From a virus, in the IMG/VR virus record IMGVR_UViG_3300017917_001958, positions 1 through 64,000 of that record: a stretch of DNA of 64,000 bases; one strand, written 5' to 3'. Under the pieces are notes generated by a model. It did not search any database. It saw only the letters and a list, made by a program, of their open reading frames with translations, and was not told the origin of the DNA. This document shows positions 1 to 63,070 of this stretch, in pieces. The first letter of the stretch is position 1, and every line of letters begins with the position of its first letter. A program made the position numbers and the translations under genes.

Positions 1-238
1 GGTTGGAGTACTAGTTGGTGTTGGTGGTACCGGAGTTGAGGTTGGAGTTGGCGTTGGAGTACTAGTTGGTGTTGGTGGTATCGGTGTGCTAGTAGGTGTT
101 GGAGTTGGCGTTGGAGTACTAGTAGGTGATGGTGTTGGGGTTGGGGTTGGGGTACTAGTTGGAGTAGGAGTTGGCGTTGGGGTACTAGTAGGTGATGGTG
201 TTGGTGTTGGACTAGGAGTTGGTGTTGGGGTTGGTGGT
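1..238 (-). repeat. Low-complexity coding repeat (Pro/Thr/Ser, [13 protein letters not shown]...)
   Basis: Iterated GTTGGA/GTTGGT/GTACTAGT units on the plus strand read as T-P/T-S codons in the minus-strand frame of the 1-4524 gene. Confidence 0.9.
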
Positions 239-3200
239 ATAAATTCCACATTACCAAATGGTTCACATGGTGTGGTGAAATTTCTTGTTAACGATTCTAT
301 GGTAGGTATCTCGGGACAATAAATTGGATCGGTATAATATTGTTGTAAATTAATATTTAAATCATTAAATTTCTTATATGTATGTTGTACCAATAATTTA
401 TGATTATTATTACCATTAAATAATATTAAATCGGTTGGTTGTGTTCCTGTTATATTAATATTATAATAAATGTCTGGCTCACAATAATTTAAATCAACTG
501 CAATGACTTCAATTAAATTACCGTCTTCGGTAATTAAATAATCTCCATTATCATGTAAAAATGGTTTATGATCGCAACAAAACTCATCTATTGGTGTTAA
601 TTTTATTTGTAAATGTTCAGGAGTTCTAACATCAAAAAAATATGTTTTGTTTGGTGTCATTGTACCATTTTGATCGTCCACCATTTTATTGGTATAAACT
701 CTTAATTTTGTTGTTGGTAAAAAATTAAAAATTTCAACATTATTATTTTTTGTGGTACCTGTTATTACACTATGTTTAACTGATCCCAAACATTCCATAT
801 CAGATATCGTAATGACTTTATATTGATAAGTAAATGAATAATTATCATTTCCTTGTGCAATTGTAAAATCAGAATTTAAAAATGTAGAAACTGGTAAATA
901 GTCTGCAGATAATAATTCAACCGTATTTCCGTTTGATATCAATTGAAATACTTCGTATACTGTTTTTACTAATATTTGTCCACTTAAAATATAAGAATTG
1001 ATATTTGAACCTGTTGTTTGATTATTAATAGTTGCACCACTAATAACCAATACCTTACTATCTTTTTTAATACCATAATTAAAACTGTTTCTATACTGTA
1101 TTTTTGGTACTATTGTATATCCGGTATAATTGTTACAATATGTTGTTCCTGTTTGTTGAGAAATTATATCTGTTAATGTTTCAATATTTTGATACGATAT
1201 AATTGTAAAATTTTGTTGATGACTTTTTGGTGGGTCATAAGGATCGAAAACTGACCTAATATCCAACCCTTCAATCTTAGCTTTAATATCACAATTAGAT
1301 GCATCAGTAAATAATAAATCTATCACACTATTTTCAGTAACACCTGTTAATAATAATGCACATTGATTTGGATCGTTTATTAATTCAATGGGTTTTAAAT
1401 AATTGTCAGTAATATATTGATTATTACCATCTTTACAATTAACATAAACATAAAGTGGCCAATCTTCAGAAATATTATTTTGAACTGTTGCACCAGTTAT
1501 CTTAATGTAAACATCACCATATAGTTGACAATTTTCAGTACCTCCGGAATAAACATCACAACTTAATGAGAATCCGACATCCAAACCACAATCCGTTGTT
1601 GTATCATATTCTGTATTAAAACGATAATCAAAATAGTCATCTACCGAACAATCATTTGTATCATATTTAACTGAGGTAAATTTAACTTTTTCTATACCAT
1701 CATTATCAACAAAAAAACTATATTTTATTTTTTGTTTATATTCGGTTGGGTGACTTTCACCCACAGTAGCTGCAAGATATGGTGCATAATTTTCATATCC
1801 GGCAGTATATCCAGTTAATGACATATTAACTACATTGTCAATTAAATTAGCCAATGCGGTTCTCCATAATGATTTTATTTTTTCAATATCGGGATTTATA
1901 TAATCTTTATAATCACATATTAATGCTAAATTAACTGGATCATTTGATTGAAAAATAGAATCACATCCTACCATTGGAAATGGGTCAAATAATTTTGCAC
2001 TATTTGTTGTATTTCCGGTTCCGCTAACAACAACTTTATATTGTGTATCGGTGTATATATCTCCATCAATTTCAATAACCGGATAATATGTTACATTTGT
2101 TAAATTAGTTAATCCTCTAAAATTATCTTCCTCACCAAGTAGAGTTTCTAAATCTTCTTCGATCGCAGTTTCAAAATCAGGATATAATGATTCAATAAAT
2201 TCTTTTGGTTGACAACCCAATTTATATTGATACTTTGGTCTACCGAAAATATTGTTTTCAATTAAATTACCTCCAGTCCATAGTGTTGTTGCGGGTATAA
2301 TTTGATCAAGTACTTGGGTCCAATATGGTCCCATTTTATTTATGAACTCATTTACATCATTAAAAATGTATGGTTTGAATTCAACACTTGAAACATAATC
2401 TTGGAAGATATCTTCTAATTTTATGTAATTTTTTTTGTATTTTATTACATGTGAATTTTTTATCTGTTCATGTAATAAATTATCGACATACTCTGCGAAA
2501 GTAACACCTGTTTGTGGTTCTAATGTATTTGATCCAAACGATAATAATAAATCTCTTGATTTTCTGTAAATATCATAATCAATTGCTTGTGATGATGATA
2601 AATAAATGTTTATATTTTTTCTATTTAAAACAAATGGATGATTAATATCATCTACTGAAGATTGTTTGTCTGCAACCTCAGGTGTTAATTCAAAACCAGT
2701 GTCAAGTCCGGGTAACGTTCTATACACATCAAAATAATCTTCACCATAAGTGTAACCTTTTGATTTTGTTTTAATAACTTTTGTTCTACCTGTTAATATA
2801 GAATTATCTGTATCTAATATGGTTGATGATCTATGATTTAATGTGATATCATACCATCCTGCTCCTTTTTGGAAAAAAATATCAGATGTGGTATCATATG
2901 CACTTCTAGGTAAACCATTTTCATCTACCGGATAACCATCTCTATTAAATGATGTTTTGCCTGTTAAAGTGATTTTTGTATATGTGTAACCGCTAGGTAT
3001 AAAATCTGCAGTGACATATGTTTTAGTTCCTTGTATAACATCATAAATGTCACTTTCTAAATCAAATGATTTTGGCATTGACGTTACACGATAAACATAT
3101 TCATCAATTTTAATCATCGGTTCTGGTGCACCAAGAAATTTTAAAAAGAATTCGATTGATGAACGTGTACCTTTTGATTTGTAAATGTATGCAAGATTAA

Positions 3201-4524
3201 CTAATAATCTTCTATAAAATTCATATTCGGCCTCAAATATTGTCTTACCATTTGATACACCTGAATATTGAGTATCTGTTCTTGTATAAAGTAGTTCGTT
3301 AATTGTTTTTTCATCAAATAAATTAATGGTATCTAAACCTAAAGTATTTGCTAAGTTTTTTAATAATACGTCAGGTAAATTGTTAATACCATCATATGTA
3401 ACATTACGCATATACGCAATATTATCGATGTATTTTTTTACTTGATCAAAACTTTGTCCGTATAATTGAAAAACAGATTCGGCTTTTTGATCCTGACTAT
3501 CAAATTCAAATAGTTGTGGAGATGCTAAAAATCTAACCATTAAATTAGATTTATAATCATCTATTTCATCTGCAATGTCACTTAAATCTGAAACATATTT
3601 ATCATACTCAAGACCAATTATTTTTAAATTCCAACCATCTCTATCTATTGGCCAATAATATTCAACGGTTGCTAATTCTGTTTTTGACTTATCAAAACTA
3701 TCTCTAGGAACTTTAAAAATTGCTCTATATTTTGGATTACTTTCTCTATCTAAAAGACTTTCTTCTAAATCATCAAGTGCATTAAAAAATTCTTCGGTTA
3801 GACCACTATTCGGTCTAATTATAAAATTAGAACTGTATGTGGTATTATCTCCAAATGGTTTACCGTTTACTTTTAAAACAATTTTATTTTGTGAATTAGG
3901 TTCGGTGTAATTTATTATATCATATGTTACACCACTTACCTCTATTACATATTTTTTATATGTGGAATAAAAATTTCTATATTCGTTATTTGACTCGGGC
4001 TTAATGTTTGATTCTGGTGTAACAAAAACAACACTATATGGATTATAAAACATAGATACTTCAACCTCAAATTGTGTTGTTTTTAAATTTATATCATATG
4101 TTATATTTGTTGCACTATTTGATCCCGAACTAATTGGTGAGTCAACATCAATTAAAACAGCAGCTGGAAATTTATTAATTATTCTAGTTAATGAAACTAA
4201 AATTCTACTTTTTAATGAACCGAATAATGATTTACCGGCATCATTTTTTGAACCTTTAAATCTTATATTTTTATTTGATTCGGTTGTGGTTTGTGTATTT
4301 GTTGTACCTGAAATGACTTCTTGATTTAAATCATCTAAAGTTAAAAAGTTAGAAAATGGATTTGTTCTAAAATTTTTACTATCTTTTTCAGGAATTACTT
4401 TATCTATAGCAAAGTTAGTATTAGTCAATTGACTACTACCATCGGTTATTTGTACACCGACAAGATTATCACTAAATGTTTCTGAACCGCTCGCTGCTTG
4501 ACTTGGAACTTTATACTTTGCCAT
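1..4524 (-). CDS. Large baseplate wedge protein (T4 gp7 / P2 gpI-like) with a Pro/Thr-rich tract; truncated at the window edge (>=1508 aa)
   Basis: Absent from the ORF track, consistent with no stop inside the window. ATG at 4524 overlaps the upstream TAA (TAATG). The frame was open wherever spot-checked. It contains [27 protein letters not shown] (about 3140-3230), the YKSKGT motif of gp7/gpI-type wedge proteins, and runs into (PT)n repeats at 1-238. Confidence 0.75.
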
Positions 4525-6392: not shown

Positions 6393-7325
6393 TTATTGTT
6401 TTTTTACTGTAAAATATCCATTTCCATAAACATCTAATTCTCCCATATTATCAATCTCACCTAACCTTAGATTTTTTTCCATTACACCTTGTTTACCTCG
6501 TTCAACAAAAACATCGGAATAAATTGTTGGTTCCTCTATAAAACCTAAAAAATGTTCATTCCTTGTTAATACTCGATTAAAAACTTCTTCTTTTGTGTAA
6601 CCCGATGTTGATCCCGTTATCATGGTATAACCGTTTTGAAAATCTCTATAGTTTAAACCATCAATAGTATATCCACTATAGTGTAAACCTTCAGATGTTG
6701 TACCGGTTGTAACTCCTACATATATATTTTCACCATATTTTTTTAATTCTGAAATTCTACTTCTACCTATTGACAAATATGTAAAAGTGGTATTTCCTGT
6801 ATGTCCCGTGGTGTAATCTAAATCATTTAAATAATTTTGAGTTTGGCCGGTTAAGTTAGTATATGATGGAATTGTCACCCCTGTAAATGTGCCCAATGGA
6901 TTAGATACTGTAATATTTTTTGGAATTGTAACAATTTTACTTAATTTTTGAATTGTCCATGGTGAATCTAACGTTATTGATATTGTATACTCGGAAGAAC
7001 TACCATATGTATGTGAAATGGTCGGTAAAGAAGTGTTAACTATTCCTTGATTTACCGTTAATCCAGAAACGTTTCCGTCTCCCCAATTTATTGTATATGT
7101 TTGTTCAATTATCTTTCTTAATTTATCAGGGTTTACGGTATTATATACTTGTATCGTTGAACCGGTTTGAGTATATGAAAAATTACATAATTGTTCTACC
7201 TGTTCGATATCACCGTCAAAACCAACCATGCCACCTAATTCATCTACAGTACTTTCTAAGTATATAGGTAAATTAAACGTTAACCCGGTGGAAGATTTTA
7301 ATATTTTATATTCGTTTTTTTCCAT
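6393..7325 (-). CDS. Virion protein with PKD-like domain (310 aa)
   Basis: YTINWGDG...ISHTY...YTISIT is the PKD-domain signature; lies in the structural operon. Confidence 0.65.
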   Translation of the reverse strand: MEKNEYKILKSSTGLTFNLPIYLESTVDELGGMVGFDGDIEQVEQLCNFSYTQTGSTIQVYNTVNPDKLRKIIEQTYTINWGDGNVSGLTVNQGIVNTSLPTISHTYGSSSEYTISITLDSPWTIQKLSKIVTIPKNITVSNPLGTFTGVTIPSYTNLTGQTQNYLNDLDYTTGHTGNTTFTYLSIGRSRISELKKYGENIYVGVTTGTTSEGLHYSGYTIDGLNYRDFQNGYTMITGSTSGYTKEEVFNRVLTRNEHFLGFIEEPTIYSDVFVERGKQGVMEKNLRLGEIDNMGELDVYGNGYFTVKKQ

Positions 7326-8119
7326 TATGTTCTTTTCTCATAAAATTTTATTGGTTGGTTACTAAACCCAACTCTACTACCTACTGTTCCATTATAATTA
7401 AAAACTTGATATGAATAATCAGTTTTATTAATAACGACTTTATAATACATATCTCTATATTCAACTACTTCTTGTACTGATGTTAAACCGGTTGTAGTGA
7501 AATCAATGACAGAGCCATCTTTAGCATTAAAAAATCTGGCAGACATCCAAAATGTATTACCAGTTAATGTAGTTTCATTAAATGCGGTTTCATCTTGGAA
7601 CCAAAACAAATACATGTTTTCTTTATTTCTATAGTTTGATCCTGTAAAAACGGGTAAATGAATATAATCATTTAATGTTGTGTAAAAATATTTTTCACCT
7701 AATGGTAATGATAAATTTTTAGCAAAAACCAAACGTCTATTTGTTCTATCAGGAACGTCGTCATTTGGTGTTTTATAAAACTCCAATCTAAAAAAACTTT
7801 CGGTTGATTGTTTTAACATTTTAGCATTTTCCTGTGATGTTATACCAACTAAATTGTAATCAATACCATTTGTGTATTGAGAAGTTCCATCTAAAAAATA
7901 AAAATAAAACCAAATATCAGATTGTTGAACATTATTATTTGATGTGTATGGTGAATGAATATATCTAACAGTTTCATAATTTTCAATCGGATTTATAATT
8001 TTTCCTAAAATTTCTTCTTCCAATTGATCCATATTTTCCTGCCATCCTGCATCGGTTTTAAAACTTTGTTCACCATTTATAATGAAAGTTCTATCTTCTA
8101 TATTTTTTAAAATTTCCAT
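7325..8119 (-). CDS. Hypothetical virion protein (about 264 aa)
   Basis: ORF in the structural operon; start moved to the ATG at 8119, which overlaps the upstream TAA (TAATG). Confidence 0.6.
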   Translation of the reverse strand: MEILKNIEDRTFIINGEQSFKTDAGWQENMDQLEEEILGKIINPIENYETVRYIHSPYTSNNNVQQSDIWFYFYFLDGTSQYTNGIDYNLVGITSQENAKMLKQSTESFFRLEFYKTPNDDVPDRTNRRLVFAKNLSLPLGEKYFYTTLNDYIHLPVFTGSNYRNKENMYLFWFQDETAFNETTLTGNTFWMSARFFNAKDGSVIDFTTTGLTSVQEVVEYRDMYYKVVINKTDYSYQVFNYNGTVGSRVGFSNQPIKFYEKRT

Positions 8120-9864
8120 TAACAATCTATTTTTTTAATTTTACTTACTCCATCGGTTTTATTTGTGTAATTCTTTTCATTTCTTAACAAGAAATCTATA
8201 TTTGTTTTAACATAATGTGTATTATTCACAAATGGAAAATCTGTACCATTTCCATCAGGATCTATAAAACCATGATCGTATAAATCTCTCCATTTCCACA
8301 ATCCCTCATCTTCAAAATATTTTGTATTATCTGGTATATTATACACGTCATTTGTTTTTGAAGTTTCTATGTATGGTGACAATTCTCTTAATTTTACCCT
8401 ATAATGTGGTTGATAATATAAACCAATCATATTGTTAATTGAAGTTCCACTATAAACTAATGGATCGTCTTGTCCATAATTAAATATTGTTTTTGGTGAT
8501 GTAAATTTATGGAACGATTCGCTAATTATTCTTTCTTTCATTTCATGTTCATTATATTCCACGAATGCCCCTGTTAATGTTGTACCTATAGGTACTGTTG
8601 TTCCACTTGTAAATGTTATTCCTGAACGAGTAAATGTTCCACCAGATAAATTAGTTTCATTAGATGTGGTACCACTAAAATGATTATCCACCCATGAATT
8701 ATGAAAATGAAATTTATACCCTACTTTTGGTGGATAATTAAAATAACCGTTATTATTTTTAAGTATCATCGAAACATAAACCTCAGTTGGTGTATATCCC
8801 AAATTATTTGTTAATCCAGTTAAAACGAAATTTTCTTTGAAATCAAATAAAACAGATTCCATTCTATTTCTTTCAACAAGAACATCATTCACACCGGCAC
8901 TATTTTCAAAAACTAATTTTCTTTCTTCTTCAAAAATTGGTAATTCAAATCCAACTTTGTCCATAATATAATCATTAGAATTGGTCAATGTTTTATGTTT
9001 ATGAACATAATATTTTGATGTTGTCCCTGTTATATTATTAATATCTTTACATCTTTTTCCTATGATTACCGAACTTAATGTTGTTGAAGACGTAAATTGA
9101 TTTTTTAATAAATTAATTACATATTTTTCAGAATCATAAATTTCATCTCCAACACTTTCAATGTTAAATGTTCTTCCTGATGTTGGTACTGAATTTGTTA
9201 ATGTTCCTCCTGAAATTATTATATATTCTCCCGAAACCATTCCATGTTCCACAGGACTAGTTAATTTGTAATACTTTCCATTATCAGTAACTCTAAAAGG
9301 TATTCCGTCACCCGCAGTAAATGAATATGTTGTATTTCCAGATAATGTATATTTCATTGGAAATGTAGTATCTCCAGAATACACATAACTTAAATAAAGA
9401 TTCCAATTATGGTATGGTGCAGTTATCGATGTTATAGTTGTATGTGAAGTATTTCCAGTTAGTACAATATTTTGGGTAAATGTTCCTAAATTACTTCCGG
9501 ACGTAGGTAAATTTAATTCTCTCAATACATCATTTCTTAAAAAAGAAAATTCATTATAAGGTAAATAACCTGTGAAATCACCATTCGAACCATCCCCATT
9601 TAAATAAAGGCGTTCTTGTAAATATGAATATGGTGTTGATCCACTATACATATTTCTAAAAATCATTCTTAACTTACCATAAATTTTATAGTTCTTACTG
9701 TCGTTTCTTTCTTTATCATATAATTTTGCAATGTCTAATATGATATTTCTATCATTTTCACGAAGTAAATTTTGATTGACATCTAAATCCAATCTAATAT
9801 CAACATCCTCATCGGGTGCTTTAAAATATTTTTTATTTGGTAATAATATTTCTTTATTTTTCAT
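8119..9864 (-). CDS. Hypothetical virion/baseplate protein (581 aa)
   Basis: Long ORF translationally coupled to both neighbours; Thr/Ser/Gly-rich beta composition. Confidence 0.6.
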   Translation of the reverse strand: MKNKEILLPNKKYFKAPDEDVDIRLDLDVNQNLLRENDRNIILDIAKLYDKERNDSKNYKIYGKLRMIFRNMYSGSTPYSYLQERLYLNGDGSNGDFTGYLPYNEFSFLRNDVLRELNLPTSGSNLGTFTQNIVLTGNTSHTTITSITAPYHNWNLYLSYVYSGDTTFPMKYTLSGNTTYSFTAGDGIPFRVTDNGKYYKLTSPVEHGMVSGEYIIISGGTLTNSVPTSGRTFNIESVGDEIYDSEKYVINLLKNQFTSSTTLSSVIIGKRCKDINNITGTTSKYYVHKHKTLTNSNDYIMDKVGFELPIFEEERKLVFENSAGVNDVLVERNRMESVLFDFKENFVLTGLTNNLGYTPTEVYVSMILKNNNGYFNYPPKVGYKFHFHNSWVDNHFSGTTSNETNLSGGTFTRSGITFTSGTTVPIGTTLTGAFVEYNEHEMKERIISESFHKFTSPKTIFNYGQDDPLVYSGTSINNMIGLYYQPHYRVKLRELSPYIETSKTNDVYNIPDNTKYFEDEGLWKWRDLYDHGFIDPDGNGTDFPFVNNTHYVKTNIDFLLRNEKNYTNKTDGVSKIKKIDC

Positions 9865-12800
9865 TATTCTACAGGTGGGAACGCTCCTTTCGGTCCAAAT
9901 AATTGTATAAATTTATCAAGCCCAGTTTTTCCGGCTTTCAATCCAAAATAAAACATGAATGGTGTTGACAATATTTGTTTACTACCACTATAGTAATCTT
10001 CAGTTTTTCGAATAATAAAATCTTTAGTTGTATCCCATGGTTGACTATGCCATGTTCCTGCATGACTGTATCTAGTGTAAAGAGTACCTGCGGTAGGTTG
10101 TGCTAATGTACCGCTAGTAACTTCTAATACAGTAAATCCGGGATATTCACTATCATAATTAGTATGACTACTTCCACTTATTATTGCGTCAAATTCAACT
10201 AAATTTGTTGCATTTCCAGCGTTTATTGATATCCCACTAAACGTGTATGTTATAGGTAATAAAAGATATCTATCAGATGAATCGTCTTCTGGATTATTAA
10301 GATTATATCCATATGTCATACCTTGTAATGGTTGCACTTGAACAGATGTATAATCCCATGATTGGTCATCCGAACTATTTTCATCTATTCCACCAAAACC
10401 AGTGCCTTTTTTATCCCATAAAAAAAATGGTACTTTTTGTGACGATTCAGTTAATCTACCTTGTATTTGTGTTACACCATCATTTGCAATGTGTGTTGGT
10501 TCATTTAAACAAGCTCTGATTCTTTCGCCATCTTCGTCAAATTCAAAAGTTATCGGTACGGGTCCCCAATATCCATTTGGTTTAAAAACCTGTGGATATA
10601 AATCAGGATCTAATATTTGGTAAGAATAACCAAGATATTTTGGACTTTGTAAATCAAATTCTTCAATTCCAACTTCATTGTTTGTTGAAATTAATTGAAT
10701 TATATCCCCATCTAAAACTCTATTCGTGAATGTAAAACCAGTATTACTAAAAAAATCATTAATGTTAAATTCATTATTACTAACATCCATCCTATAATTA
10801 ATTGCCAATCCTAATAATTCACCAAAACTTTGAAAAGATGATGGACCAATTGATCTTGAAACCGAACAATTTGGATCTAATCCGGGATCAACACATATTT
10901 CTTTAATAAATTCATCTCTAGGTCCTAAGTCAACCATTGTTGTAGGTCTCCCGATTAATTTTTGATTATTATTCATTGTCCAATTATTAATCCCCCAAGA
11001 TGATTCATTATTATAAATTGCCGATCGATAATAATATCTATCTTCAGATGAAATATATTTTATAACGTCTTCACAAAACTTACCCTTTTTACTTTTAAAT
11101 TGAAAAAAATATAATGAACCCGATAACCAATTATCAATAAAAGAATAATTAACAATTCCTCCACAAAAAAGTTTACCGACTCTTTTTCTTCTATAATATT
11201 CTTTTAAGACATCAATTAATCTACCATTACTTTGTGATCCAGGTACAATGTAAAAAATTCCATTCGAAAATTCTGATTTTCCTGAACCTGTCGTTCTACT
11301 ATATGTATTGCCATTAAATGAAGGTGGTAACTCATAACCATCACCATCAGAAACATTTGTACCTATTATATCCATACCCGGGGTATAATTAATTGGTAAT
11401 ATTTCAGTTCTGGGCAATGTGGTTCCACTATAGTAAAGACTAATTAAACTTTCGTTATATGGAGTATCATATATATCACAACCGGTCTCAAGATTAACAG
11501 TAATATTAGATGATCCTGTTTCCGTGTTATTTAGATCAACAATATCTACCGTATATGTTCCGCTTTGGACAATTAAAATATTTTTTGAGTCTGAAAAATA
11601 ATCTTCCGATATCCCATCAACTAAATGTGTGCTTACAAAAAGACCATCTACAGTATTTTCAGGATCTAATTCAAAAAGATCACCATTTAAATTTCTTATA
11701 CCATAATTATTTTGTATTGATATAAAGTTACTTATTGATGTTGGTATTGTTATTGTTGAACATTCACCATTTGTTGGTTGTGTAAATGTCGCATTAGTGA
11801 TCTTGTTATAAAACAACGATCCGGGTAAATCTAAAACAGTATAAGTAAGTGTACCAACTATACAATAATTTACTTTTCCTCCTCCACCGGTTGACGTTAA
11901 AGTATTTTCACCGCTACATTCCTCACATTCAGGATAATTTATTAGACGTAATCCTTTTTGTCCGGTATCCATAATACTATAACCAATATTAACCATACTT
12001 CTACCTAATCCACCTAATGGACATACACCTAAAAAACACGTATCCATAAACGAATAACCTATTGAAATAAACAATTTAGAAATTACATTAAAAAATAGTA
12101 ATTTAACCATGTTTAATAAATGTTCAATAAATAAAAGGACTTCAGCAATTAATAATGGAAATGTAAAATTTTTTACACCAAAATTAACTGGAGGTGTTAC
12201 TACATCATTTGAACAATCTTCTTCTTCCGTAGGTAGAATTTCTTTAATCCCAAGATATTTGTCTCCTGAAAAAGTTTCACCTCTATAATTTAAATTCTGA
12301 AATGAAGAAACTGTATATACTTTATTGTATGTTAATCTATAAAAATAATCTCTAGGATAGTATTGACCATATTGATTATATAGTATACCTCTATTAGAAT
12401 CATTACTTACCGCACTTATTGGATAATCATCAAAATTTGTTGAGAACGCATATGATTTATCGGATTCCGTACCATTTGTTTGATAATCCCTGATATTAGG
12501 GACTAAGTATGATGCAGATTTTCTAACTCTAGCGTTTCCAGCATCATCTAAAGAAAATCTAAATCTATAACACGCAGATGTTGCAATACCTTTATTTGGG
12601 TCGTTAGTTATTTCATTTTCACCGAATTCATTAGTGAAAACATAATCCATATTCATAGGAACCGGAAAAACAAAAGAACCATCTTCAGGAATATCTTCAT
12701 GTAAATCAAATTTCTCTAAAATAGGTCTATTATTATCATCTTTAGTTGTTGTAAATCTAATAGCCTCAATTGTTCCTGTTTTAGTGTGTAAATCGCATTT

Positions 12801-13640
12801 TCTACCCATTTTTTGTCTGGGTTGACAATTTTTATTTAAAGAATTTTTATTGGTGTCCGTGTATGTACCTCCAATTAACATTGCCTTTGGTTCAATTTTA
12901 ACACCTCTATCCGATAAATCAAAATCACTTCTTGTAATACCAATTTCACATAATTCTTGATTACCCCAAAATGGATAAACTTCTATGGTTTTATCAAAAG
13001 AAACTATTTGAGGTAGTGCATTCAAATCTTCAGATGACTTAAATGAGTATGTATTTTTAAATTGGTCCAAACCAATTCCTTGTTTTATAAAATCATATGG
13101 TCTTAATGAAAAACAACCAATGTCAGATAAGTCAACATCAACATGTAAGGTTTGACTTCCAATTGGAACTCCCCAAATCATAAAATCACCCGCATCATTT
13201 GTTTTAACAGTATATGTATAATATTTTTCATAAACTTCTAAAACCTCTTCTCTATTTAAAATATCCGATTGATCAGGAAAGGTTCCTGTTGGTTCGTGTC
13301 CACCATGTTGTTTTCTTGATGGTAATAAATTGTATCGGTAATTTGTATCGTTTCTATCTGATGTCGATTTATATGGATATAAAGATGAAATAACCGGATC
13401 ATTTTCATCTTCAGCTGATAGTGGAACAAATATTGAAACTTTAGCATTTGGTATACCAAAACCATTATTTACTGAAATCCTACCACAAACAACCCCATAA
13501 TCGGCACAAAGAGAAGTGTACACATCTTTTTGTGTGAATTTTAAGGATAAAATTTCTAGTAAATCAAAATCTTGTTTTAATTCAACTTTGATTACTTGAT
13601 CTTTACCGACATTTGTAGATATTCTATGTTTTTGTATCAT
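9864..13640 (-). CDS. Large virion/baseplate-associated protein with N-terminal carboxypeptidase-regulatory-like (transthyretin-fold) domain and an internal hydrophobic segment (1258 aa)
   Basis: GVVCGRISVNNGFGIPNAKVSIF...VKTNDAGDFMIWGVPIGSQTLHVDVD matches the CarboxypepD_reg/Cna-B pattern; it follows the gp6-like gene. Confidence 0.55.
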   Translation of the reverse strand: MIQKHRISTNVGKDQVIKVELKQDFDLLEILSLKFTQKDVYTSLCADYGVVCGRISVNNGFGIPNAKVSIFVPLSAEDENDPVISSLYPYKSTSDRNDTNYRYNLLPSRKQHGGHEPTGTFPDQSDILNREEVLEVYEKYYTYTVKTNDAGDFMIWGVPIGSQTLHVDVDLSDIGCFSLRPYDFIKQGIGLDQFKNTYSFKSSEDLNALPQIVSFDKTIEVYPFWGNQELCEIGITRSDFDLSDRGVKIEPKAMLIGGTYTDTNKNSLNKNCQPRQKMGRKCDLHTKTGTIEAIRFTTTKDDNNRPILEKFDLHEDIPEDGSFVFPVPMNMDYVFTNEFGENEITNDPNKGIATSACYRFRFSLDDAGNARVRKSASYLVPNIRDYQTNGTESDKSYAFSTNFDDYPISAVSNDSNRGILYNQYGQYYPRDYFYRLTYNKVYTVSSFQNLNYRGETFSGDKYLGIKEILPTEEEDCSNDVVTPPVNFGVKNFTFPLLIAEVLLFIEHLLNMVKLLFFNVISKLFISIGYSFMDTCFLGVCPLGGLGRSMVNIGYSIMDTGQKGLRLINYPECEECSGENTLTSTGGGGKVNYCIVGTLTYTVLDLPGSLFYNKITNATFTQPTNGECSTITIPTSISNFISIQNNYGIRNLNGDLFELDPENTVDGLFVSTHLVDGISEDYFSDSKNILIVQSGTYTVDIVDLNNTETGSSNITVNLETGCDIYDTPYNESLISLYYSGTTLPRTEILPINYTPGMDIIGTNVSDGDGYELPPSFNGNTYSRTTGSGKSEFSNGIFYIVPGSQSNGRLIDVLKEYYRRKRVGKLFCGGIVNYSFIDNWLSGSLYFFQFKSKKGKFCEDVIKYISSEDRYYYRSAIYNNESSWGINNWTMNNNQKLIGRPTTMVDLGPRDEFIKEICVDPGLDPNCSVSRSIGPSSFQSFGELLGLAINYRMDVSNNEFNINDFFSNTGFTFTNRVLDGDIIQLISTNNEVGIEEFDLQSPKYLGYSYQILDPDLYPQVFKPNGYWGPVPITFEFDEDGERIRACLNEPTHIANDGVTQIQGRLTESSQKVPFFLWDKKGTGFGGIDENSSDDQSWDYTSVQVQPLQGMTYGYNLNNPEDDSSDRYLLLPITYTFSGISINAGNATNLVEFDAIISGSSHTNYDSEYPGFTVLEVTSGTLAQPTAGTLYTRYSHAGTWHSQPWDTTKDFIIRKTEDYYSGSKQILSTPFMFYFGLKAGKTGLDKFIQLFGPKGAFPPVE

Positions 13641-13694: not shown

Positions 13695-15527
13695 TTAAAA
13701 TGTAGTCGTACCTAAAGTTTTAACTCTAACTTTAATATCTTTATTTGGAAATCTAATCTGAAAAATTTGATTTGATTTCATATAAATAATCATGTCAGAT
13801 TGTTGTATCTCTTTAGTTATTGAATCAACATAGGATTGTGAAACTTCAGACGATGAGTATTCACCTCCGGTTAAACCATATACTCTAATATCAATAACAT
13901 TTACCACGCCTGATACGGTACCAATTATTCTATTTAAATCTCCAACAAATAATGGATCACCCATTTTTCTTTTTTCGATAGCAAAATAACTAACAACATC
14001 TTCAATTGTTGTTTTTATTATATCTGTTTGATTATAATTTTTATCAACAACTAAGTCAATTTCTAAACCCATGTCAATTACCTCACCGCTGTTTATGTCG
14101 ATATAGTCATTTATCATTCTATATTGAGAAAGATAATTTAAAATATTATTTTTTAATGTATTTGAAACAACATCAGTTAAATTACCTTTATCGTCATATG
14201 ATAAAAGTTTAATTCTAACTTTATTATCTTCTTCCATCACATTAACTTTAGCTGGTGCTCCGTATGTTGATGGCATCGTTTCGATTAAAGATTTATAATC
14301 ATTTAAAGTTACCGCTCTATTTTGTGCTGCAAAATTATATGAAATCATATTTCTTATTTCATCAATCGTTGGTTGATCCGCACCACCAATTGCCGGTGTA
14401 ATATTGGTAACTTTTAACGATTGGATAACTTGTGTGTTAATACCACTATTTGGACCATTTACATTGAATTCAACATCATCTACACTATTAATAACTCCTA
14501 CACCTATATTTGAATCTTTTCCGCCACCAACTCTATATTTTATGAATAAAGTTGTATTTGCTTTAGGTGTGGCACCTAAAGACAAGTTATTTAAATAAGA
14601 TGCAATATTAACTTTCAAATCGTTAGTGATGTAGTTATCTAAATTATCTAAAGGATTTACGGTTCCGGAACCAAATGTCACTGAAAAATAACCCTCCGGT
14701 GTGTATTCTGTTACAAATTTATTTGATACGTCAACATATTCACCCGCTTTGAAATTATCTCTATCAGAAACTGACGTACTATTTGGTACAAATACTTTAT
14801 CCTCTATCAATGATTTAACTTCATACCATTTATTTGTTGATGAATCAAACTCAGATGACGTTGGATTTGCACCGAAAGTAGTTCCTTCTTTATGTATTAT
14901 AGAGGTTATTCCTAAAACATTTTGTTCAGGTAAATATAATTTTAAAAATGGTTTTTGATCTATTTCTGTAATAACTCTTCTGAATATTCTTGTGGTACCA
15001 TTTGCAACCGCTTCTCTTTTTGTGATGGTATATGAAACCAATCTATTATTTCCATCAAAATTAGGTATTTTTAATCTATTCGGTTCTCCTCTACTGTTAA
15101 ATGGATTTGAAAAATCAATATCTTCAATTGTTTCAAATATTTGTCCTCCGCCAGATATTTGTGCACCTCCCTTTAAAAGACCCAAATATCTTTCATCTTC
15201 TTTATCACCCCTAACAGGTACATTTACTGAAAAATCACATAAAGCAACTGAAGGTCTTGTTCCCGGTATTTTCATACCATATGTCTTAGCGATATGAAAT
15301 AATGATTGTCTTTGTTGTGCAAAATCTAACATTGTTTCTTGCCAAACTCTATCAATATGGAAATGTAAATTATCTGCAACCGCAGCGTTTAAATCTAACA
15401 ACACTGAATATATTGAAGCGTCATTAGTATTTCCAACCAAATCAGGATAATATTCTTTTGTAAGATTAACTAATTCTTGTCTTAATCCAGCAAAATCTCT
15501 CGTTGCGTATGATATTTTTTTACTCAT
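13695..15527 (-). CDS. Baseplate wedge subunit (T4 gp6 / baseplate J-like)
   Basis: RDFAGLRQEL...LDFAQQRQSL N-terminus, VTFGSG, YRVGGG..SN and GGAD...AQNRAVTLNDY motifs typical of gp6; adjacent to the gp25-like gene. Confidence 0.9.
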   Translation of the reverse strand: MSKKISYATRDFAGLRQELVNLTKEYYPDLVGNTNDASIYSVLLDLNAAVADNLHFHIDRVWQETMLDFAQQRQSLFHIAKTYGMKIPGTRPSVALCDFSVNVPVRGDKEDERYLGLLKGGAQISGGGQIFETIEDIDFSNPFNSRGEPNRLKIPNFDGNNRLVSYTITKREAVANGTTRIFRRVITEIDQKPFLKLYLPEQNVLGITSIIHKEGTTFGANPTSSEFDSSTNKWYEVKSLIEDKVFVPNSTSVSDRDNFKAGEYVDVSNKFVTEYTPEGYFSVTFGSGTVNPLDNLDNYITNDLKVNIASYLNNLSLGATPKANTTLFIKYRVGGGKDSNIGVGVINSVDDVEFNVNGPNSGINTQVIQSLKVTNITPAIGGADQPTIDEIRNMISYNFAAQNRAVTLNDYKSLIETMPSTYGAPAKVNVMEEDNKVRIKLLSYDDKGNLTDVVSNTLKNNILNYLSQYRMINDYIDINSGEVIDMGLEIDLVVDKNYNQTDIIKTTIEDVVSYFAIEKRKMGDPLFVGDLNRIIGTVSGVVNVIDIRVYGLTGGEYSSSEVSQSYVDSITKEIQQSDMIIYMKSNQIFQIRFPNKDIKVRVKTLGTTTF

Positions 15528-15528
15528 C

Positions 15529-15978
15529 TTATATGTTTATAATTATAAAATCTGAAGACGAAAACGCCCCATTATTAACTGTATAATCTATTTTAACTTT
15601 TGCGGTATATGGTTTAGATGAAGTATCTGAAACTCTAAATAATCTAGCATCTTCCTCTTCCGATACAGTTGTTTCAGTTGTTTCATTTTCGGCGGAAATA
15701 ATGTTTATTGAATTTATATCTAAATTAGGTATGTATTTTTTAACACTTTCTCTAATTTCTTCCTCAATTAAATTAAAAGTCACCATATCATTTTGGTCAA
15801 AAATATATTCATATATTCTGGTACCAAAATCAGGTAAATAATATCTACTACCTTTTTTTGTTAAAAGAAGATGTAAAAGATTTGCTCTAACTTCTCTTTC
15901 GGGGGTTTCTGTCATATTAAGAAATTGTCCCTTCTGACTGTCTCTAAATGGATAATCTATTCCGTATGTTTCTGCCAT
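15529..15978 (-). CDS. Baseplate wedge / sheath-initiation protein (T4 gp25-like)
   Basis: GIDYPF...VRANLLHLLLTKKGSRYYLPDFGTRIYEYIFD is the GPW_gp25 signature. Confidence 0.9.
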   Translation of the reverse strand: MAETYGIDYPFRDSQKGQFLNMTETPEREVRANLLHLLLTKKGSRYYLPDFGTRIYEYIFDQNDMVTFNLIEEEIRESVKKYIPNLDINSINIISAENETTETTVSEEEDARLFRVSDTSSKPYTAKVKIDYTVNNGAFSSSDFIIINI

Positions 15979-18504: not shown

Positions 18505-18515
18505 ATTTAATAATT

Positions 18516-52601: not shown

Positions 52602-53729
52602 TTATGGTGTTGGTGTTGGTGTTGGTGTTGGTGTACTAGTAGGTGGTAAAGTTGGAGGAGGTTCTGGTGTACTAGTGGGTGTACTAGTTGGTGTACTAGT
52701 TGGTACCTGAGTTTCATTTGGTGTTGGTGTTGGAGTTGGTGTTGGTGGATTAAACCCTATTGGTAGATCAACACAATCAGAAACACATTCATTTATAAAA
52801 TAATATGGTTTTAATGAAACCAAATAATGATGATAAACATGTATATAGTCTAACGGTTCTTCAATATATTGAACTCTTTTTAATAAAAATTGTGTGGTAC
52901 CTGTATGAATATTATTGCACCCACTTGTTCCCCCGCCCCAAACTTGAACCATAGGATTTACCGAACTTCTTTTCGACGGGATTACCTCCTCCCAATCTTT
53001 TAATTTATAAATTGGATTTCCGTTTAAATATATTTTAAGAGTCCCCAACCTACTTTCTTTCTCGTCAGCCCATTTTTTATTTAAATCTTCGGTAATTCCG
53101 CCGGAATTTGATATTAAATCATTCCATCCACCCTCATTTTCGATATCACAATCAGTTAAATATTTATTTCTATCAAAAGTTATAGTGATATTAAAATCGT
53201 TACTTGTACCACCAGAACATAAAGTTGGTGTTTGACCTGATGATATATATGAAGATTCAATGTATCCTGAATTACAATAACCGGAATATCTAAATGATTT
53301 CCATAAAATTCTACCATCGTTAGTAAATGAAAATGATAAATTATTATCTAAATAATTTCTTGGGTCAATTTCATTTTTAATACCTAAATAATAAAAAGTA
53401 CTACCACTAACCCATGGTAAATTTTGTTTATTAAACACAAAATTAAGTGTCCAACCTTTTTCAGTTCTTCTTTTTACTATAAAATCACAAGAATTAAATG
53501 TATATCCTGTATTAACTTCAATTTCCCATGGAATAATTTCATTTAATGGGAAAATTGCACATTGTGAATCGATAATTAATGTCGAATATATTATTGGTGT
53601 TGTTAAATCTAATATATCTGTATTATAATCACCTTCGACTTTAGATATTTCATAATCATAAAGTTCTGAAAAATCTATCTTTAAATCAAGTTTAGACCCA
53701 TAAAAGTTTAAAATATTTTGACTGCTCAT
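52602..53729 (-). CDS. Virion-associated protein, LamG/ConA-like fold, ending in a Pro/Thr tail (375 aa)
   Basis: FNITITFDR...GTLKIYLNG..IY pattern; the last ~48 aa are PTPTPT repeats (52605-52748). Confidence 0.55.
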   Translation of the reverse strand: MSSQNILNFYGSKLDLKIDFSELYDYEISKVEGDYNTDILDLTTPIIYSTLIIDSQCAIFPLNEIIPWEIEVNTGYTFNSCDFIVKRRTEKGWTLNFVFNKQNLPWVSGSTFYYLGIKNEIDPRNYLDNNLSFSFTNDGRILWKSFRYSGYCNSGYIESSYISSGQTPTLCSGGTSNDFNITITFDRNKYLTDCDIENEGGWNDLISNSGGITEDLNKKWADEKESRLGTLKIYLNGNPIYKLKDWEEVIPSKRSSVNPMVQVWGGGTSGCNNIHTGTTQFLLKRVQYIEEPLDYIHVYHHYLVSLKPYYFINECVSDCVDLPIGFNPPTPTPTPTPNETQVPTSTPTSTPTSTPEPPPTLPPTSTPTPTPTPTP

Positions 53730-57132: not shown

Positions 57133-58359
57133 ATGTCAAAAATAAGAATTTTAGCTATATCCCCCGACATATATGGTGTCGGTAAATTTAGGATTCTCGA
57201 TCCATACAAATATATCGGAGAAAATTATAATAATGATGTTCATGTGGACATCACGTTTAACGCAGAAATGGACGATGAGTTTTTTAAAAACTATGATATT
57301 GTCGTCTTCCACGGATTTATTCATCAACTAAGTCACGAAATAAATGTAGAAAGAGTTAAGTGGTTGAAATTAAACGGTATTAAAGTCGTTATGGACATTG
57401 ATGATATGTGGTTTGTTGATCAAAGACATCCGATGTATCATCAAATAAAAGAAAGTAAAATTGGTGAAAATAAAGTTGAATTACTTAAATTATCTGATTA
57501 TGTTACCACAACAACACCAATTTTTTCAAATACAATAAAGACAAGATTAGGTATTAAAAATGTTGAAATTTTTCCAAATGCGATAAATGAAGAGGAATCA
57601 CAATTTAAACCAAACCCAATGAAATCAGAAAAAGTTCGATTTGGTTGGTTAGGTGGTTCATCACATATGTATGATTTAGAATTATTAAAAAATGGTATAT
57701 CATCTATACACAATGAATTTAAAGATAAAGTACAATTTATTTTATGCGGATTTGATTTAAGAGGTACCGTTACCGAAATTGACGCTAAAACTGGTAAAAG
57801 AAATAAAAGAGATATTAAACCAACAGAAACGGTTTGGTATCAGTATGAGAAGTTTTTTACTGATGATTACAAATGTTTAAATGAAAATTACAAGAATTAT
57901 CTTTTAAAATTTTCACAAGAATTACCATTTGATGACTCTAACGAAAATTATATTAGAAGATGGACACAAGATGTGAATATCTATGCAAATAATTATAACT
58001 ATTTTGATGTATCTTTGGCACCATTAGTTGAATCAATATTTAACGGTAATAAATCACAATTAAAAATTATTGAGGCTGGTTTCCATAAAAAAGCAGTTAT
58101 TGCAAGTGAAACTGACCCATATACATTAGATTTAATTTCTGCAGTTGATAATGGTTCATTTAATAATAAGGGTAATGCTTTATTAGTTAACACAAAAAGA
58201 AATCATAAAGATTGGACAAAACATATGAAACGATTAATTCAAAATCCCAATATGATTGAAGATTTAGGTAACCGTTTATATGAAACCGTTAAAGACAAAT
58301 ATTCATTAAAAAAAGTCTCTAAAGATAGAGTTGAATTTTTCAAATCGATTTTAAAATAA
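57133..58359 (+). CDS. Glycosyltransferase, GT-B fold (GT4-like)
   Basis: VVMDIDD, DYVTTTT, FPNAI, FGWLGGSSH..DL, DVSLAPL...FN..KSQLKIIEAG and AVIAS motifs. Confidence 0.85.
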   Translation: MSKIRILAISPDIYGVGKFRILDPYKYIGENYNNDVHVDITFNAEMDDEFFKNYDIVVFHGFIHQLSHEINVERVKWLKLNGIKVVMDIDDMWFVDQRHPMYHQIKESKIGENKVELLKLSDYVTTTTPIFSNTIKTRLGIKNVEIFPNAINEEESQFKPNPMKSEKVRFGWLGGSSHMYDLELLKNGISSIHNEFKDKVQFILCGFDLRGTVTEIDAKTGKRNKRDIKPTETVWYQYEKFFTDDYKCLNENYKNYLLKFSQELPFDDSNENYIRRWTQDVNIYANNYNYFDVSLAPLVESIFNGNKSQLKIIEAGFHKKAVIASETDPYTLDLISAVDNGSFNNKGNALLVNTKRNHKDWTKHMKRLIQNPNMIEDLGNRLYETVKDKYSLKKVSKDRVEFFKSILK

Positions 58360-60237: not shown

Positions 60238-60258
60238 AAAAAATTAATAATTTTAATT

Positions 60259-60295
60259 AAACCTATCTCATTAAATAAATGGGATAGGTTTTTTT
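60259..60295 (+). terminator. Intrinsic terminator after phoH
   Basis: AAACCTATCTCATT-loop-AATGGGATAGGTTT followed by a T run. Confidence 0.85.
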
Positions 60296-60330
60296 ATTTA
60301 CTTATAACAATTATTTAATTATATTTTAAT

Positions 60331-60984: not shown

Positions 60985-61214
60985 AAACTGACGGAACCGA
61001 TGAATCCGATGCAACTGAAGAATCAGACGGGTCAATCGAAATAAACATTTTTAAATATGAAATTATAAAAATGTGTTTAGAAAGACTCTTAAATGATGTT
61101 CAAGAAATCGATGAGGAAATGGGGGTATTTGCACAAAACGATACCAGTATTTCGTTTAAAATAGCATTTAACACTTTAATAAAAAATCAAATATTAATCG
61201 AAGACGATGAGTAA
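60903..61214 (+). CDS. Hypothetical acidic protein (103 aa)
   Basis: ORF overlapping both neighbours in the operon. Confidence 0.55.
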   Translation: MVNIFGKNYYIDIDGITEKCRTTQQIIETDGTDESDATEESDGSIEINIFKYEIIKMCLERLLNDVQEIDEEMGVFAQNDTSISFKIAFNTLIKNQILIEDDE

Positions 61215-62274
61215 TAACAAAGAAAACATTGAAAAACTTGAATCTGCATTAGATAGATTAGAATCTAACAAAAATGTCGTGTATTTTTTAACATACGACA
61301 CAAAAAATAATCCTAGAGCATCGGTAAAACATATTTATGATTTAGCTTTAACATTGAATAAAAATGGAATACTTTCTAAAATTTTAGTTGAAGATAAAAC
61401 ATATGTTGGTATTGAATCGTGGCTAGGTGACACATATAAAGAATTGGAAGTGGTATCAATCAAGGACGATAAAGTAGTGATCCAAGTCGATGATACAATT
61501 GTCGTTCCCGAGTATTATTCAAACGCATTACAACAATTATCTAACATTAAATGTGTTAAAATAATGTTAATCCAACAAAAGGATTACATTTTTGAAACTT
61601 TACCAATTGGTAGTAGATGGTCTGATTATGGATTTGATAAAGTTATAACAACAACCGAAAGTGCAAAAAAATATATTTTGGATTATTTTCCGGAATCGAT
61701 TGTTTATATCATCCCACCAATTATAGGTGAACAATTTAAACCAATTACATTACCGTTAAAACCATATGTTGCTATTAGTTGTAGAGATAGGGGTGTTCAT
61801 AGAAGATTAATTTCTGAATTTTATTTGAAATATCCTCACCTTAGATGGATAACCTTTAAAGATATGGTTAACATGAATTATGACGAGTTCGCACATAATT
61901 TAAAAGAATGTATGGTTTCTTTATGGGTAGATGATGAATCAACATTTGGTACATTTCCATTAGAATCAATGAAATGTGGGGTACCTGTTGTTGGTAAAAT
62001 ACCTGATACAGAACCAGATTGGTTGAAAGAAAATGGTATGTGGACATATGATATTAATAAATTGGTTGAGATTTTAGCAACATACATTTTAGCTTGGATC
62101 GAAGGTGTTGAATTAACTGATGAGGTTAAAAACAATATGAAAGATACATTACTACCTTATACAACATCGGTAACAGAAAATAACATTATATCTATTTTCA
62201 CATCTTTTAAAAATAAAAGAATTGAAAATATTCAAACAGCATTAGAAAAAATAAAAAAAGAAGAAACGAAATAA
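61207..62274 (+). CDS. Glycosyltransferase, GT-B fold (GT4-like)
   Basis: IVVPEY and ESTFGTFPLESMKCGVPVVG, a GT4-like E...FG.P.LEAM.CG.PV motif. Confidence 0.75.
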   Translation: MSNNKENIEKLESALDRLESNKNVVYFLTYDTKNNPRASVKHIYDLALTLNKNGILSKILVEDKTYVGIESWLGDTYKELEVVSIKDDKVVIQVDDTIVVPEYYSNALQQLSNIKCVKIMLIQQKDYIFETLPIGSRWSDYGFDKVITTTESAKKYILDYFPESIVYIIPPIIGEQFKPITLPLKPYVAISCRDRGVHRRLISEFYLKYPHLRWITFKDMVNMNYDEFAHNLKECMVSLWVDDESTFGTFPLESMKCGVPVVGKIPDTEPDWLKENGMWTYDINKLVEILATYILAWIEGVELTDEVKNNMKDTLLPYTTSVTENNIISIFTSFKNKRIENIQTALEKIKKEETK

Positions 62275-62275
62275 T

Positions 62276-63070
62276 ATGAAAGAAATTTTATTTACAGTAA
62301 TTTTACCGGTACACACGTTAGATGGTATATATGAAGATATGTTAAAAAATGCAGTTAGTTCTGTTGAAGATTTTCATAATGATGTGAATCTTATGATTGT
62401 CTATCCAAATGCATTAGATGAAAAAATAAAAACAATTCCACTAAGTGATAAATTAAACATTTTATATACATCTCATAATTTACCTGTTGGGGATTTTTGT
62501 TCTCAAGTAAATTTTGGTATTGAAAAATGTGAAACAACTTGGTTTTCTATTTTGGAAATTGACGATCAATATAAACCAATTTGGTTAAAATCAATGAATG
62601 AATATCTTAACACTTATAAAGATGTTGATGTATTTTTACCAATAGTTAAAGACATTAACGTAGAGGGAAATTTTATAAGTTTTACTAATGAATCGGCATG
62701 GGCATATGGTTTTACCGAAAGACAAGGATTCATCGATAATGAAGTTTTACTTGAGTTTCAAAATTATCAAATAAGTGGTGGTTTATACAAAACCAAAACA
62801 ATCAAAGATAACGGTTCATTAAAAGAAAATATTAAATTAACATTTGGATATGAGTTTTTACTAAGATTAACACATAATGGAGTTAAAATAATGACAGTTC
62901 CTCATATTGGATATGAACATCTTAATTTAAGAGAAGATTCGTTGTTTTGGAGTTATAAAAATGATGAAAAAAATAAATTAAGTCAGGATGAAGTTAAATT
63001 TTGGTTAGACACAGCAAAAAAAGAATTTTTCTTTAAAAATAAACGTGATGTAAATTATGTGAAAGTGTAA
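62276..63070 (+). CDS. Glycosyltransferase family 2 (GT-A fold)
   Basis: FTVILPVH, NAVSSV, QVNFGIEKCETTWFSILEIDD (DxD-like) and YEFLLRL motifs. Confidence 0.8.
   Translation: MKEILFTVILPVHTLDGIYEDMLKNAVSSVEDFHNDVNLMIVYPNALDEKIKTIPLSDKLNILYTSHNLPVGDFCSQVNFGIEKCETTWFSILEIDDQYKPIWLKSMNEYLNTYKDVDVFLPIVKDINVEGNFISFTNESAWAYGFTERQGFIDNEVLLEFQNYQISGGLYKTKTIKDNGSLKENIKLTFGYEFLLRLTHNGVKIMTVPHIGYEHLNLREDSLFWSYKNDEKNKLSQDEVKFWLDTAKKEFFFKNKRDVNYVKV

Follow-up and report, generated by a model that had tools for sequence, protein, structure and literature searches.

Enrichment of an [ST]-G-x-T tetrapeptide on virion proteins of an uncultured jumbo myophage and its co-occurrence with a phage-encoded glycosyltransferase family

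The window analysed here (64,000 nucleotides, positions 1 to 64,000 of the IMG/VR virus record IMGVR_UViG_3300017917_001958) comprises the first 64 kb of a viral contig of 75.9 kb, whose G+C content is about 29%. It encodes virion proteins in which the tetrapeptide [ST]-G-x-T occurs far more often than expected, and a soluble glycosyltransferase (GT) of 408 amino acids (aa), named GT408, which is a candidate for the enzyme that reads the tetrapeptide. The minus strand carries a T4-like virion module with gp25-like and gp6-like wedge proteins (15978-13695), the tail tube and the tail sheath, and large proteins without a family occupy 13640-1 in a row after the wedge genes. The genes of NrdA/NrdB, a DnaB-like helicase, a RecA-like protein, gp32, PolB and an SNF2 helicase are interspersed with the virion genes. 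The plus strand from 53.8 to 63.8 kb carries a dUTPase/dCTP-deaminase-like gene, PhoH, three probable glycosyltransferases and a sigma-70-region-2-like protein. According to CheckV-type estimates from related contigs, the full genome has about 310-340 kb. By these sizes the phage is a jumbo myophage, and the contig covers about one quarter of its genome. It has no near cultured phage, and the closest sheath match is Microcystis phage Mel-JY01 with 31% identity. The features are as follows, where the expected motif number of a protein was obtained from 2000 shuffles of the whole protein.

1..4524, minus strand: outer baseplate/fibre-like protein of at least 1508 aa, C-terminus beyond the contig end; 16 motifs (1.5 expected)
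6393..7325, minus strand: 310-aa protein with a PKD-like beta-sandwich at residues ~46-137; 11 motifs (0.95 expected)
7325..8125, minus strand: 266-aa protein of the virion module; 2 motifs here
8119..9864, minus strand: 581-aa protein of the baseplate module; 12 motifs (0.74 expected)
9864..13640, minus strand: 1258-aa protein downstream of the gp6-like gene; 2 motifs (1.3 expected), unenriched here
13695..15978, minus strand: gp6-like and gp25-like inner baseplate proteins (phrog_219, phrog_261); motif-free internal contrast
25652..31438, minus strand: 1928-aa protein, no family match; 5 motifs (1.14 expected, p ~0.008, weak enrichment)
31748..36523, minus strand: 1591-aa protein, no family match; 4 motifs (1.43 expected, p ~0.03-0.05, marginal)
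39435..39923, minus strand: tail tube protein (phrog_4542); motif-free
40257..43136, minus strand: tail sheath of 959 aa with Pfam sheath domains; 9 motifs (1.56 expected)
52602..53729, minus strand: 375-aa protein with a C-terminal Pro-Thr (PT) tail; 5 motifs (0.51 expected)
57133..58359, plus strand: GT408, probable GT-B-type glycosyltransferase, candidate writer (phrog_7162, 3e-42)
61207..62274, plus strand: 355-aa probable GT-B enzyme (Glycos_transf_1 below cut-off; PDB 8xsg, 6.7e-6)
62276..63070, plus strand: 264-aa probable GT-A enzyme with a DxD-like EIDDQ (Glycos_transf_2, 2e-4, below cut-off)
contig 74218-75681, just beyond the window: capsid protein; 5 motifs (~1 expected)

In ten virion proteins, 71 copies of [ST]-G-x-T were observed, and 11-12 were expected according to block shuffles of 15 or 30 residues, by which the local composition is kept. 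The highest count among 2000 block shuffles was 26. The enrichment is about 6-10-fold on the outer tail, baseplate and head proteins. The initial annotation of this DNA had counted about 65 copies in the structural proteins and had named composition-preserving shuffles as the check. All of its per-protein counts were reproduced. Its labels 'hub' and 'tube initiator' for the 1928-aa and 1591-aa proteins remain putative names, since neither protein matches a known family. In the 310-aa protein, each of the 11 [ST]G dipeptides is followed by xT, as had been claimed. The nine sheath copies are all located in the inserted region of residues 125-515, and none is located in the conserved C-terminal core (606-957), in agreement with the earlier statement that they lie in a variable insertion. 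No copy is present in the tube, gp6-like, gp25-like, NrdA and NrdB proteins, and the 621-aa protein and all the enzymes are at or below expectation. PolB has two copies, and the single copy of the helicase is its Walker A sequence TGKT. The absence from the tube, gp6-like, NrdA and NrdB proteins and the PolB and helicase counts are as first described. The enrichment on the virion proteins is confirmed to be real and strong.

A nucleotide word, a local richness in Ser, Thr and Gly, or hidden domain repeats could be proposed as the origin of these counts. Thr, Ser and Gly are in fact abundant in these proteins, which also contain PT tracts. The codons within the motif, however, match the background synonymous usage, and Ser is encoded by both TCN and AGY. 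Thus, the signal lies in the protein and is not a DNA word, which bears out the earlier claim that the motif is not a DNA repeat. An artefact of local composition is ruled out by the block shuffles, since the 71 copies stand against 12 expected. BLAST among the motif-rich proteins of the window detected no paralogy and neither mutual nor internal matches, so that a common domain is also ruled out and the structural proteins are non-homologous, as had been stated. The motifs are irregularly spaced with unrelated flanks, and no constant period or common context of a regular structural repeat (beta-helix, collagen-like or RTX-like) was found in the window proteins. An artefact of DNA or composition is very improbable.

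The three fixed positions of the motif are strongly interdependent. At position 1 before G-x-T, Ser (11x) and Thr (9x) are enriched, and Asn, Asp and Ala are at chance. At position 2, Gly alone is enriched (9.9x). At position 4 after [ST]-G-x, Thr alone is enriched (9.9x), with Ser at 1.5x and Val at 0.3x. Position 3 accepts almost any residue, so that the free variation of x described in the initial annotation holds except for Pro and Glu, which are excluded. Homologues from 80 related contigs, 258,000 residues in all, gave the same position profile. At position -1, hydrophobic residues are favoured (37 of 60 sites).

A purely structural explanation of this profile is that Phi-[ST]-G-x-T is a favoured tight beta-hairpin or turn, which is reused by fast-evolving surface domains and stays unmodified. 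The hydrophobic preference at position -1 is in favour of this explanation, and so are the structure models. AlphaFold2 models of the 310-aa and 581-aa proteins were built from alignments of 27 and 31 rows, respectively. In their confident stretches, the Ser/Thr is predicted to close a beta-strand, G-x to form a two-residue turn, and the Thr to open the next strand. Such a strand-turn-strand junction would give the motif a uniform and recognisable conformation. Residues ~46-137 of the 310-aa model match PKD domains by Foldseek with an E value of 2e-4 and a template modelling (TM) score of 0.70-0.74, and the confident part of this model is a PKD-like sandwich. The model as a whole has a predicted local distance difference test (pLDDT) score of 53. 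The PKD label given to this protein earlier is thus tentative; the fold speaks for it, and no Pfam match accompanies it. PDB profile searches found no solved relatives of either protein. The sites are probably exposed on the surface, judging from the proteins and domains that carry them (the sheath and capsid insertions and the outer baseplate). Against the unmodified turn, the turn-equivalent residues are not enriched, namely Asn and Asp at position 1, and Val, Ile and Ser at position 4. In the window, [ND]GxT was found 4 times with 4.6 expected and [ST]Gx[VI] 6 times with 7.5 expected, and both are likewise unenriched in three other genomes. An ordinary Asx/ST turn or hairpin preference does not fit these results, since it would tolerate N/D and V/I. 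The irregular spacing in the window proteins also argues against it.

The evolution of the motif was followed in 80 IMG/VR contigs encoding 55-67% identical homologues of the 581-aa protein. Across these relatives, the motif is enriched in the families of the 581-aa (13x), 266-aa (7x), 1508-aa (5.4x), 310-aa (4.9x) and 1258-aa (4x) proteins, and no enrichment was found in the gp6-like, gp25-like, NrdA and NrdB families. Within the alignment of the 581-aa family, 0.70 of the homologues retain the motif Thr, compared with 0.46 for other Thr residues, and the corresponding values for the motif Ser/Thr are 0.73 and 0.58. The x residue is kept in 0.37, compared with 0.61 overall. The sites are thus retained as motifs, where S and T interchange, G and T are kept, and x is free. 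The number of copies per homologue ranges from 5 to 18, and 63 alignment columns hold the motif in at least one of 81 sequences. In these alignments, purifying selection on the three key residues goes together with frequent gain at new places. This pattern would be expected of a tag that is selected for density on variable surface regions. As a separate observation, the 581-aa homologue is fused with the downstream genes into one 2569-aa open reading frame (ORF) in L079:8054-15760 and L080:9980-17686.

Six control genomes were scanned in their structural regions or as whole genomes. The numbers of [ST]-G-x-T observed and expected are 6 and 8.3 in Microcystis phage Mel-JY01, 10 and 8.4 in the Morganella T4-like phage MP1, 16 and 14.3 in cyanophage P-TIM40, and 21 and 21.8 in Escherichia coli phage ESCO13. 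In the 484-kb uncultured phage LR756508, of which 400 kb were scanned, 53 copies were found with 40 expected, and no single ORF is significant. Flavobacterium phage immuto shows a weak excess of 1.8x. The enrichment is therefore not a general property of phage structural or beta-rich virion proteins. As a general preference of beta-rich proteins cannot explain a lineage-specific excess of 6-13-fold, a lineage-specific factor that reads the word seems to be needed.

The motif is strongly enriched in distant phages as well. In the 735-kb megaphage LR756501, 18 ORFs are enriched in the motif at p<1e-3 (for example, 22 copies with 1.6 expected, 15 with 1.8 and 12 with 0.9). G005, a 243-kb contig of the LR756501 lineage, has 124 copies with 27 expected overall and nine ORFs at p<1e-3, one of them with 26 copies and 1.5 expected. 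G009 (334.7 kb, 96% complete) has 134 copies with 41.9 expected, and nine ORFs are at p<1e-3. The proteins that carry the motif in the megaphage are not related to the motif-bearing proteins of the window phage. Apart from GT408, the megaphage lineage and the window contig have in common only NrdA, a helicase, the C-terminus of the sheath (26%), the capsid protein (22%) and PhoH. In sheath and capsid, LR756508 and Mel-JY01 are 30-44% identical to the window phage, compared with 22-26% for the megaphage.

A GT408 homologue of at least 33% identity is present in every motif-positive genome examined, that is, in the window clade, G009 (about 41% identical), LR756501 and G005. Among the complete phage genomes searched, matches to GT408 above 30% identity were found only in LR756501 and its twin record (34% over the full length). 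The six control genomes have no GT408 homologue except for remote paralogues of 24-26% identity in ESCO13. LR756508 and Mel-JY01 lack both the motif and GT408 and yet are closer to the window phage in the structural genes. Thus, the motif goes with GT408 rather than with structural-gene phylogeny. Such co-occurrence across very distant phages is predicted of a writer and its sequon. The lineage distribution, which tracks the glycosyltransferase gene and not structural-gene relatedness, also argues against the unmodified turn, and so do the beta-rich virion proteins of five unrelated phages without enrichment and of a sixth at 1.8x. We regard the purely structural explanation as unlikely, though it keeps some weight.

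The initial annotation had assigned two GT-B enzymes and one GT-A enzyme to the plus-strand block. GT408 has a strong match to the PHROG glycosyltransferase family, whereas the 355-aa and 264-aa enzymes stay below the Pfam cut-offs and are probable glycosyltransferases. Against the GT1/GT4 profiles, GT408 gives an E value of 0.011 for Glyco_trans_1_4, and the 16.5 bits are below the cut-off of 27. No PDB sequence match of GT408 was found. Its neighbours in the protein atlas are viral clusters named 'glycosyltransferase family 1'. The GT408 family is very large and almost purely viral, with more than 6500 matches and 324 clusters (50% identity) at E<=1e-30. No membrane segments are predicted in any of the three glycosyltransferases, as would be expected for soluble cytoplasmic enzymes acting at virion assembly. 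It had been proposed to examine whether the motif co-occurs with the cluster of three glycosyltransferase genes. GT408 tracks the motif, whereas the 355-aa and 264-aa enzymes have no homologue anywhere in the 735-kb LR756501. The 355-aa enzyme is conserved in close relatives. The gene of the motif-bearing 375-aa protein (52602-53729) is divergent from the block that holds the glycosyltransferases, and this synteny is also found in the relative L145. Among distant members of the GT408 family, the P0169 search found nothing, the flanks of P0197 and P0232 are without structural genes, and the alignment A3 of such members is too diverse for widening the motif test.

A phyletic profile was made of the families common to G009 and the window clade on one side and the megaphage lineage on the other, minus the families also present in LR756508 or ESCO13. 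The remainder of the housekeeping type consists of NAPRTase, isochorismatase, IF3, Dam methylase, thymidine kinase and two metallophosphoesterases. The only families in the remainder that would be able to modify a hydroxyl group are GT408 and a Pol-beta-type nucleotidyltransferase. The latter is encoded at the following places.

G002 104939-105724, minus strand: Pol-beta-type nucleotidyltransferase
G009 199347-200075, minus strand: Pol-beta-type nucleotidyltransferase
LR756501 457826-459481, minus strand: Pol-beta-type nucleotidyltransferase

In LR756501, this gene adjoins that of an AAA ATPase. An AAA ATPase shared with the megaphage is not retained as a candidate, since the 96%-complete G009 lacks it.

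We propose the following mechanism. The [ST]-G-x-T motif (x not Pro/Glu) would be a short recognition tag, which selection has placed repeatedly and independently on tight turns of outward-facing virion proteins, namely on outer baseplate/fibre proteins and on the insertions of the sheath and the capsid. The likeliest reader would be the phage's own soluble and probably GT-B-type enzyme GT408, acting in the cytoplasm on virion proteins while they are made or assembled. GT408 would glycosylate the Ser/Thr of the motif, its Thr, or both, and the resulting glycan coat of the particle may serve shielding, solubility or the tuning of adhesion. In this proposal we infer the enzyme reading, GT408 as the enzyme, the nature of the glycan and its role.

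Several results weigh against this proposal. The co-occurrence is based on two deep lineages with sub-clades and six controls, without phylogenetic correction. ESCO13 has distant GT408 paralogues and no motif enrichment. The signal is not uniform between clades, since G009 also enriches [ST]AxT, the megaphages also enrich [ST]GxS, and flank preferences vary by clade. The AlphaFold2 models are poor (pLDDT 52.7 for the 310-aa and 46.8 for the 581-aa protein), which is insufficient for mapping exposure. An ORF of LR756501 has the motif within a regular W-SGGT-F structural repeat, and in motif-positive genomes the conserved non-virion proteins do not avoid the motif; both results are also in favour of an unmodified turn. 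The seeming depletion in gp6-like and NrdA homologues arises because the sequences are not independent. In the window, GT408 lies within the block of the dUTPase/dCTP-deaminase-like gene and PhoH, and in LR756501 its homologue is located 1.5 kb from a ThyA-family gene. In view of this nucleotide-metabolism neighbourhood, a DNA-modifying glycosyltransferase fits as well. Finally, the phyletic pattern of the Pol-beta-type nucleotidyltransferase is the same as that of GT408 and the motif.

The last two points lead to another explanation, in which the tag is read by a different factor and GT408 serves the glycosylation of DNA or of the cell envelope. The other reader could be the Pol-beta-type nucleotidyltransferase (by O-nucleotidylylation), a radical-SAM enzyme or a pair of kinase and phosphatase. 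It could also be a protein that binds the tag non-covalently, for example an assembly chaperone or a decoration protein. The nucleotidyltransferase is present in the window clade (G002), G009 and LR756501 and absent from the six control genomes, and metallophosphoesterases and a radical-SAM/SPASM protein are common to the positive clades. In addition, DNA-glycosylating phage glycosyltransferases are common, as cited in PMC12619734. On the other hand, NTP_transf_2/MTPAP-like enzymes are mostly nucleotidyltransferases of RNA or small molecules, and no dCMP-hydroxymethylase-type enzyme was seen. The ThyA homologue of LR756501 has retained the uracil-type Asn and appears to be a canonical thymidylate synthase. 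A kinase was not detected in the window, whose contig holds about one quarter of the genome. We consider it rather unlikely that GT408 serves another target while another factor reads the tag.

The initial annotation had read [ST]-G-x-T as an acceptor sequon. This reading is partly supported. It gains from the sharp position profile, the conserved key residues, the repeated gains, the lineage specificity and the co-occurrence with GT408. It is weakened because only one glycosyltransferase of three follows the motif, and because a DNA target and the Pol-beta-type nucleotidyltransferase compete with it. The analysis itself establishes that the motif is enriched, how specific its positions are, how it evolves, that it is confined to certain lineages and that it co-occurs with GT408. 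It is probable that the motif is a tag on virion proteins read by some enzyme. We give about even odds to the more specific mechanism, in which the tag is a sequon for O-glycosylation by enzymes of the GT408 family. A wider model is possible and is put forward tentatively, in which the GT408 family reads [ST]-G-x-T on folded turns and coats freshwater jumbo- and megaphages with O-glycans. In this model, enzyme and sequon would have spread together between lineages with almost no other common genes, and the recipients would have re-evolved the sequon on their own structural proteins.

The closest known system is the virion O-glycosylation of mycobacteriophages by phage-encoded glycosyltransferases (Freeman et al. 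2023, Cell Host Microbe 31:1216, as cited in PMC12619734). The two are similar in that the glycosyltransferases are phage-encoded and cytoplasmic, virion structural proteins are the proposed acceptors, and shielding is the proposed role. They differ in the defined internal sequon, the acceptors and the phage group. According to the cited account, the mycobacteriophage glycans are located on the C-terminal tails of capsid and tail-tube proteins and were shown chemically, whereas the candidate sites of the window phage are an internal tetrapeptide on outer tail, baseplate, sheath and capsid-insertion domains. Acceptor sites on capsid or tube C-terminal tails are not matched here, as the tube has no motif, the sites are internal, and the PT tails are on two other proteins.

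Sequon-directed bacterial systems (those of Bacteroidota, PglB and the cytoplasmic NGT/HMW1C) also use a short sequon with a free non-Pro x on many unrelated proteins. The Bacteroidota and PglB systems are, however, periplasmic, whereas virions assemble in the cytoplasm, and the motif is also different. The Bacteroidota O-glycosylation sequon D-[ST]-[AILVMT], which had already been set apart from the phage motif, is unenriched in the ten virion proteins (31 with 36.1 expected), and so is N-x-[ST] (126 with 127 expected). The xylosylation site of proteoglycans, Ser-Gly-x-Gly, is an O-glycosylation signal for a transferase with a soluble domain. It resembles the phage motif as a tetrapeptide of Ser-Gly-x followed by a small or hydroxyl residue, but the enzyme is a eukaryotic Golgi enzyme, an acidic context is needed, and Gly instead of Thr is at position 4. 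In the freshwater 'glycofibrils' found by CryoSeek, beta-sandwich (IPT) domains have about 13 O-glycans each, and a G-S-x-x-S repeat is glycosylated on two hydroxyl residues three positions apart (bioRxiv 10.1101/2025.09.30.679562). The i/i+3 spacing is as in [ST]-G-x-T; the glycofibrils, however, were attributed to eukaryotes or stayed unassigned, they have no known link to phages or GT408, and their Gly precedes the first Ser, whereas in the phage motif it follows. The 'moraphages' are a large aquatic phage lineage with four core glycosyltransferase families, for which DnaK/DnaJ were highlighted (PMC12619734). The likeness consists in aquatic jumbo phages with conserved glycosyltransferases, and the motif-positive G009 has DnaK/DnaJ; no motif or sequon is described in PMC12619734. 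What the present analysis adds is a sharply defined position profile, the control genomes, a link across lineages to one particular glycosyltransferase, and a second candidate reader.

Some further observations were made in these genomes. Long (PT)n or Pro-Thr-Ser (PTS) tails are present on two motif-rich proteins, the 1-4524 protein (from aa 1431; window 1-280) and the 375-aa protein (52602-52740). Linkers of the PT/PTS type are classic targets of O-glycosylation. A 309-aa ORF (5445-6374, minus strand) with a resolvase-type HTH_7 is motif-free and lies within the row of baseplate genes; it may be an insertion of a homing endonuclease or mobile element. The NrdA and NrdB genes (16072-19487, minus strand) have the gp25-like baseplate gene on one side and the replicative helicase on the other as immediate neighbours, which is an unusual interleaving of metabolism and virion genes. 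Directly after the pair of glycosyltransferase genes, a sigma-70 region-2-like protein (63071-63769, plus strand; below the Pfam cut-off) is encoded, which may be a gp55-like late sigma factor. The T4 late promoter TATAAATA is unenriched, with 17 copies and 22.9 expected. The word (A/C)TATTTATA, the reverse complement of the T4 late promoter core, recurs 15-40 nucleotides upstream of many genes and may be a phage promoter. It is present upstream of 13640, 36523, 38435, 39923, 43136, 45195, 52513 and 53729 on the minus strand, and of 45247, 48032, 53784, 56502 and 59512 on the plus strand. GT408 is preceded only by the imperfect copy TTATTATTTAGA. In LR756501, motif-containing repeats are located at 586009-588105 (plus strand) and 617131-619206 (minus strand), one a collagen-like G-x-y tract rich in SGT/SGK and the other W-SGGT-F. 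In ESCO13 (NC_047770.1, an E. coli phapecoctavirus), the regions 33046-36324 and 105289-106966 encode a dTDP-rhamnose pathway and the two remote GT408 paralogues. In G009 (L186), the genes of NAPRTase, a nicotinamidase-like protein, IF3, DnaJ and DnaK lie in a row at 20.6-28 kb, and several of them are common to the 735-kb megaphage.

If the proposed reading is true, a phage-encoded system of protein glycosylation would for the first time have a defined acceptor sequon. As an application, the enzyme and its tag would provide a compact and portable pair for cytoplasmic glyco-engineering. Relatives of GT408 number thousands in metagenomes, and the finding would indicate for the first time that many of the very abundant jumbo phages in the environment have glycan-coated virions. 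The retention of glycosyltransferases without known targets by large phages would be explained, and the finding would change the models of the virion surface, host recognition, aggregation, and recognition by grazers or immune systems.

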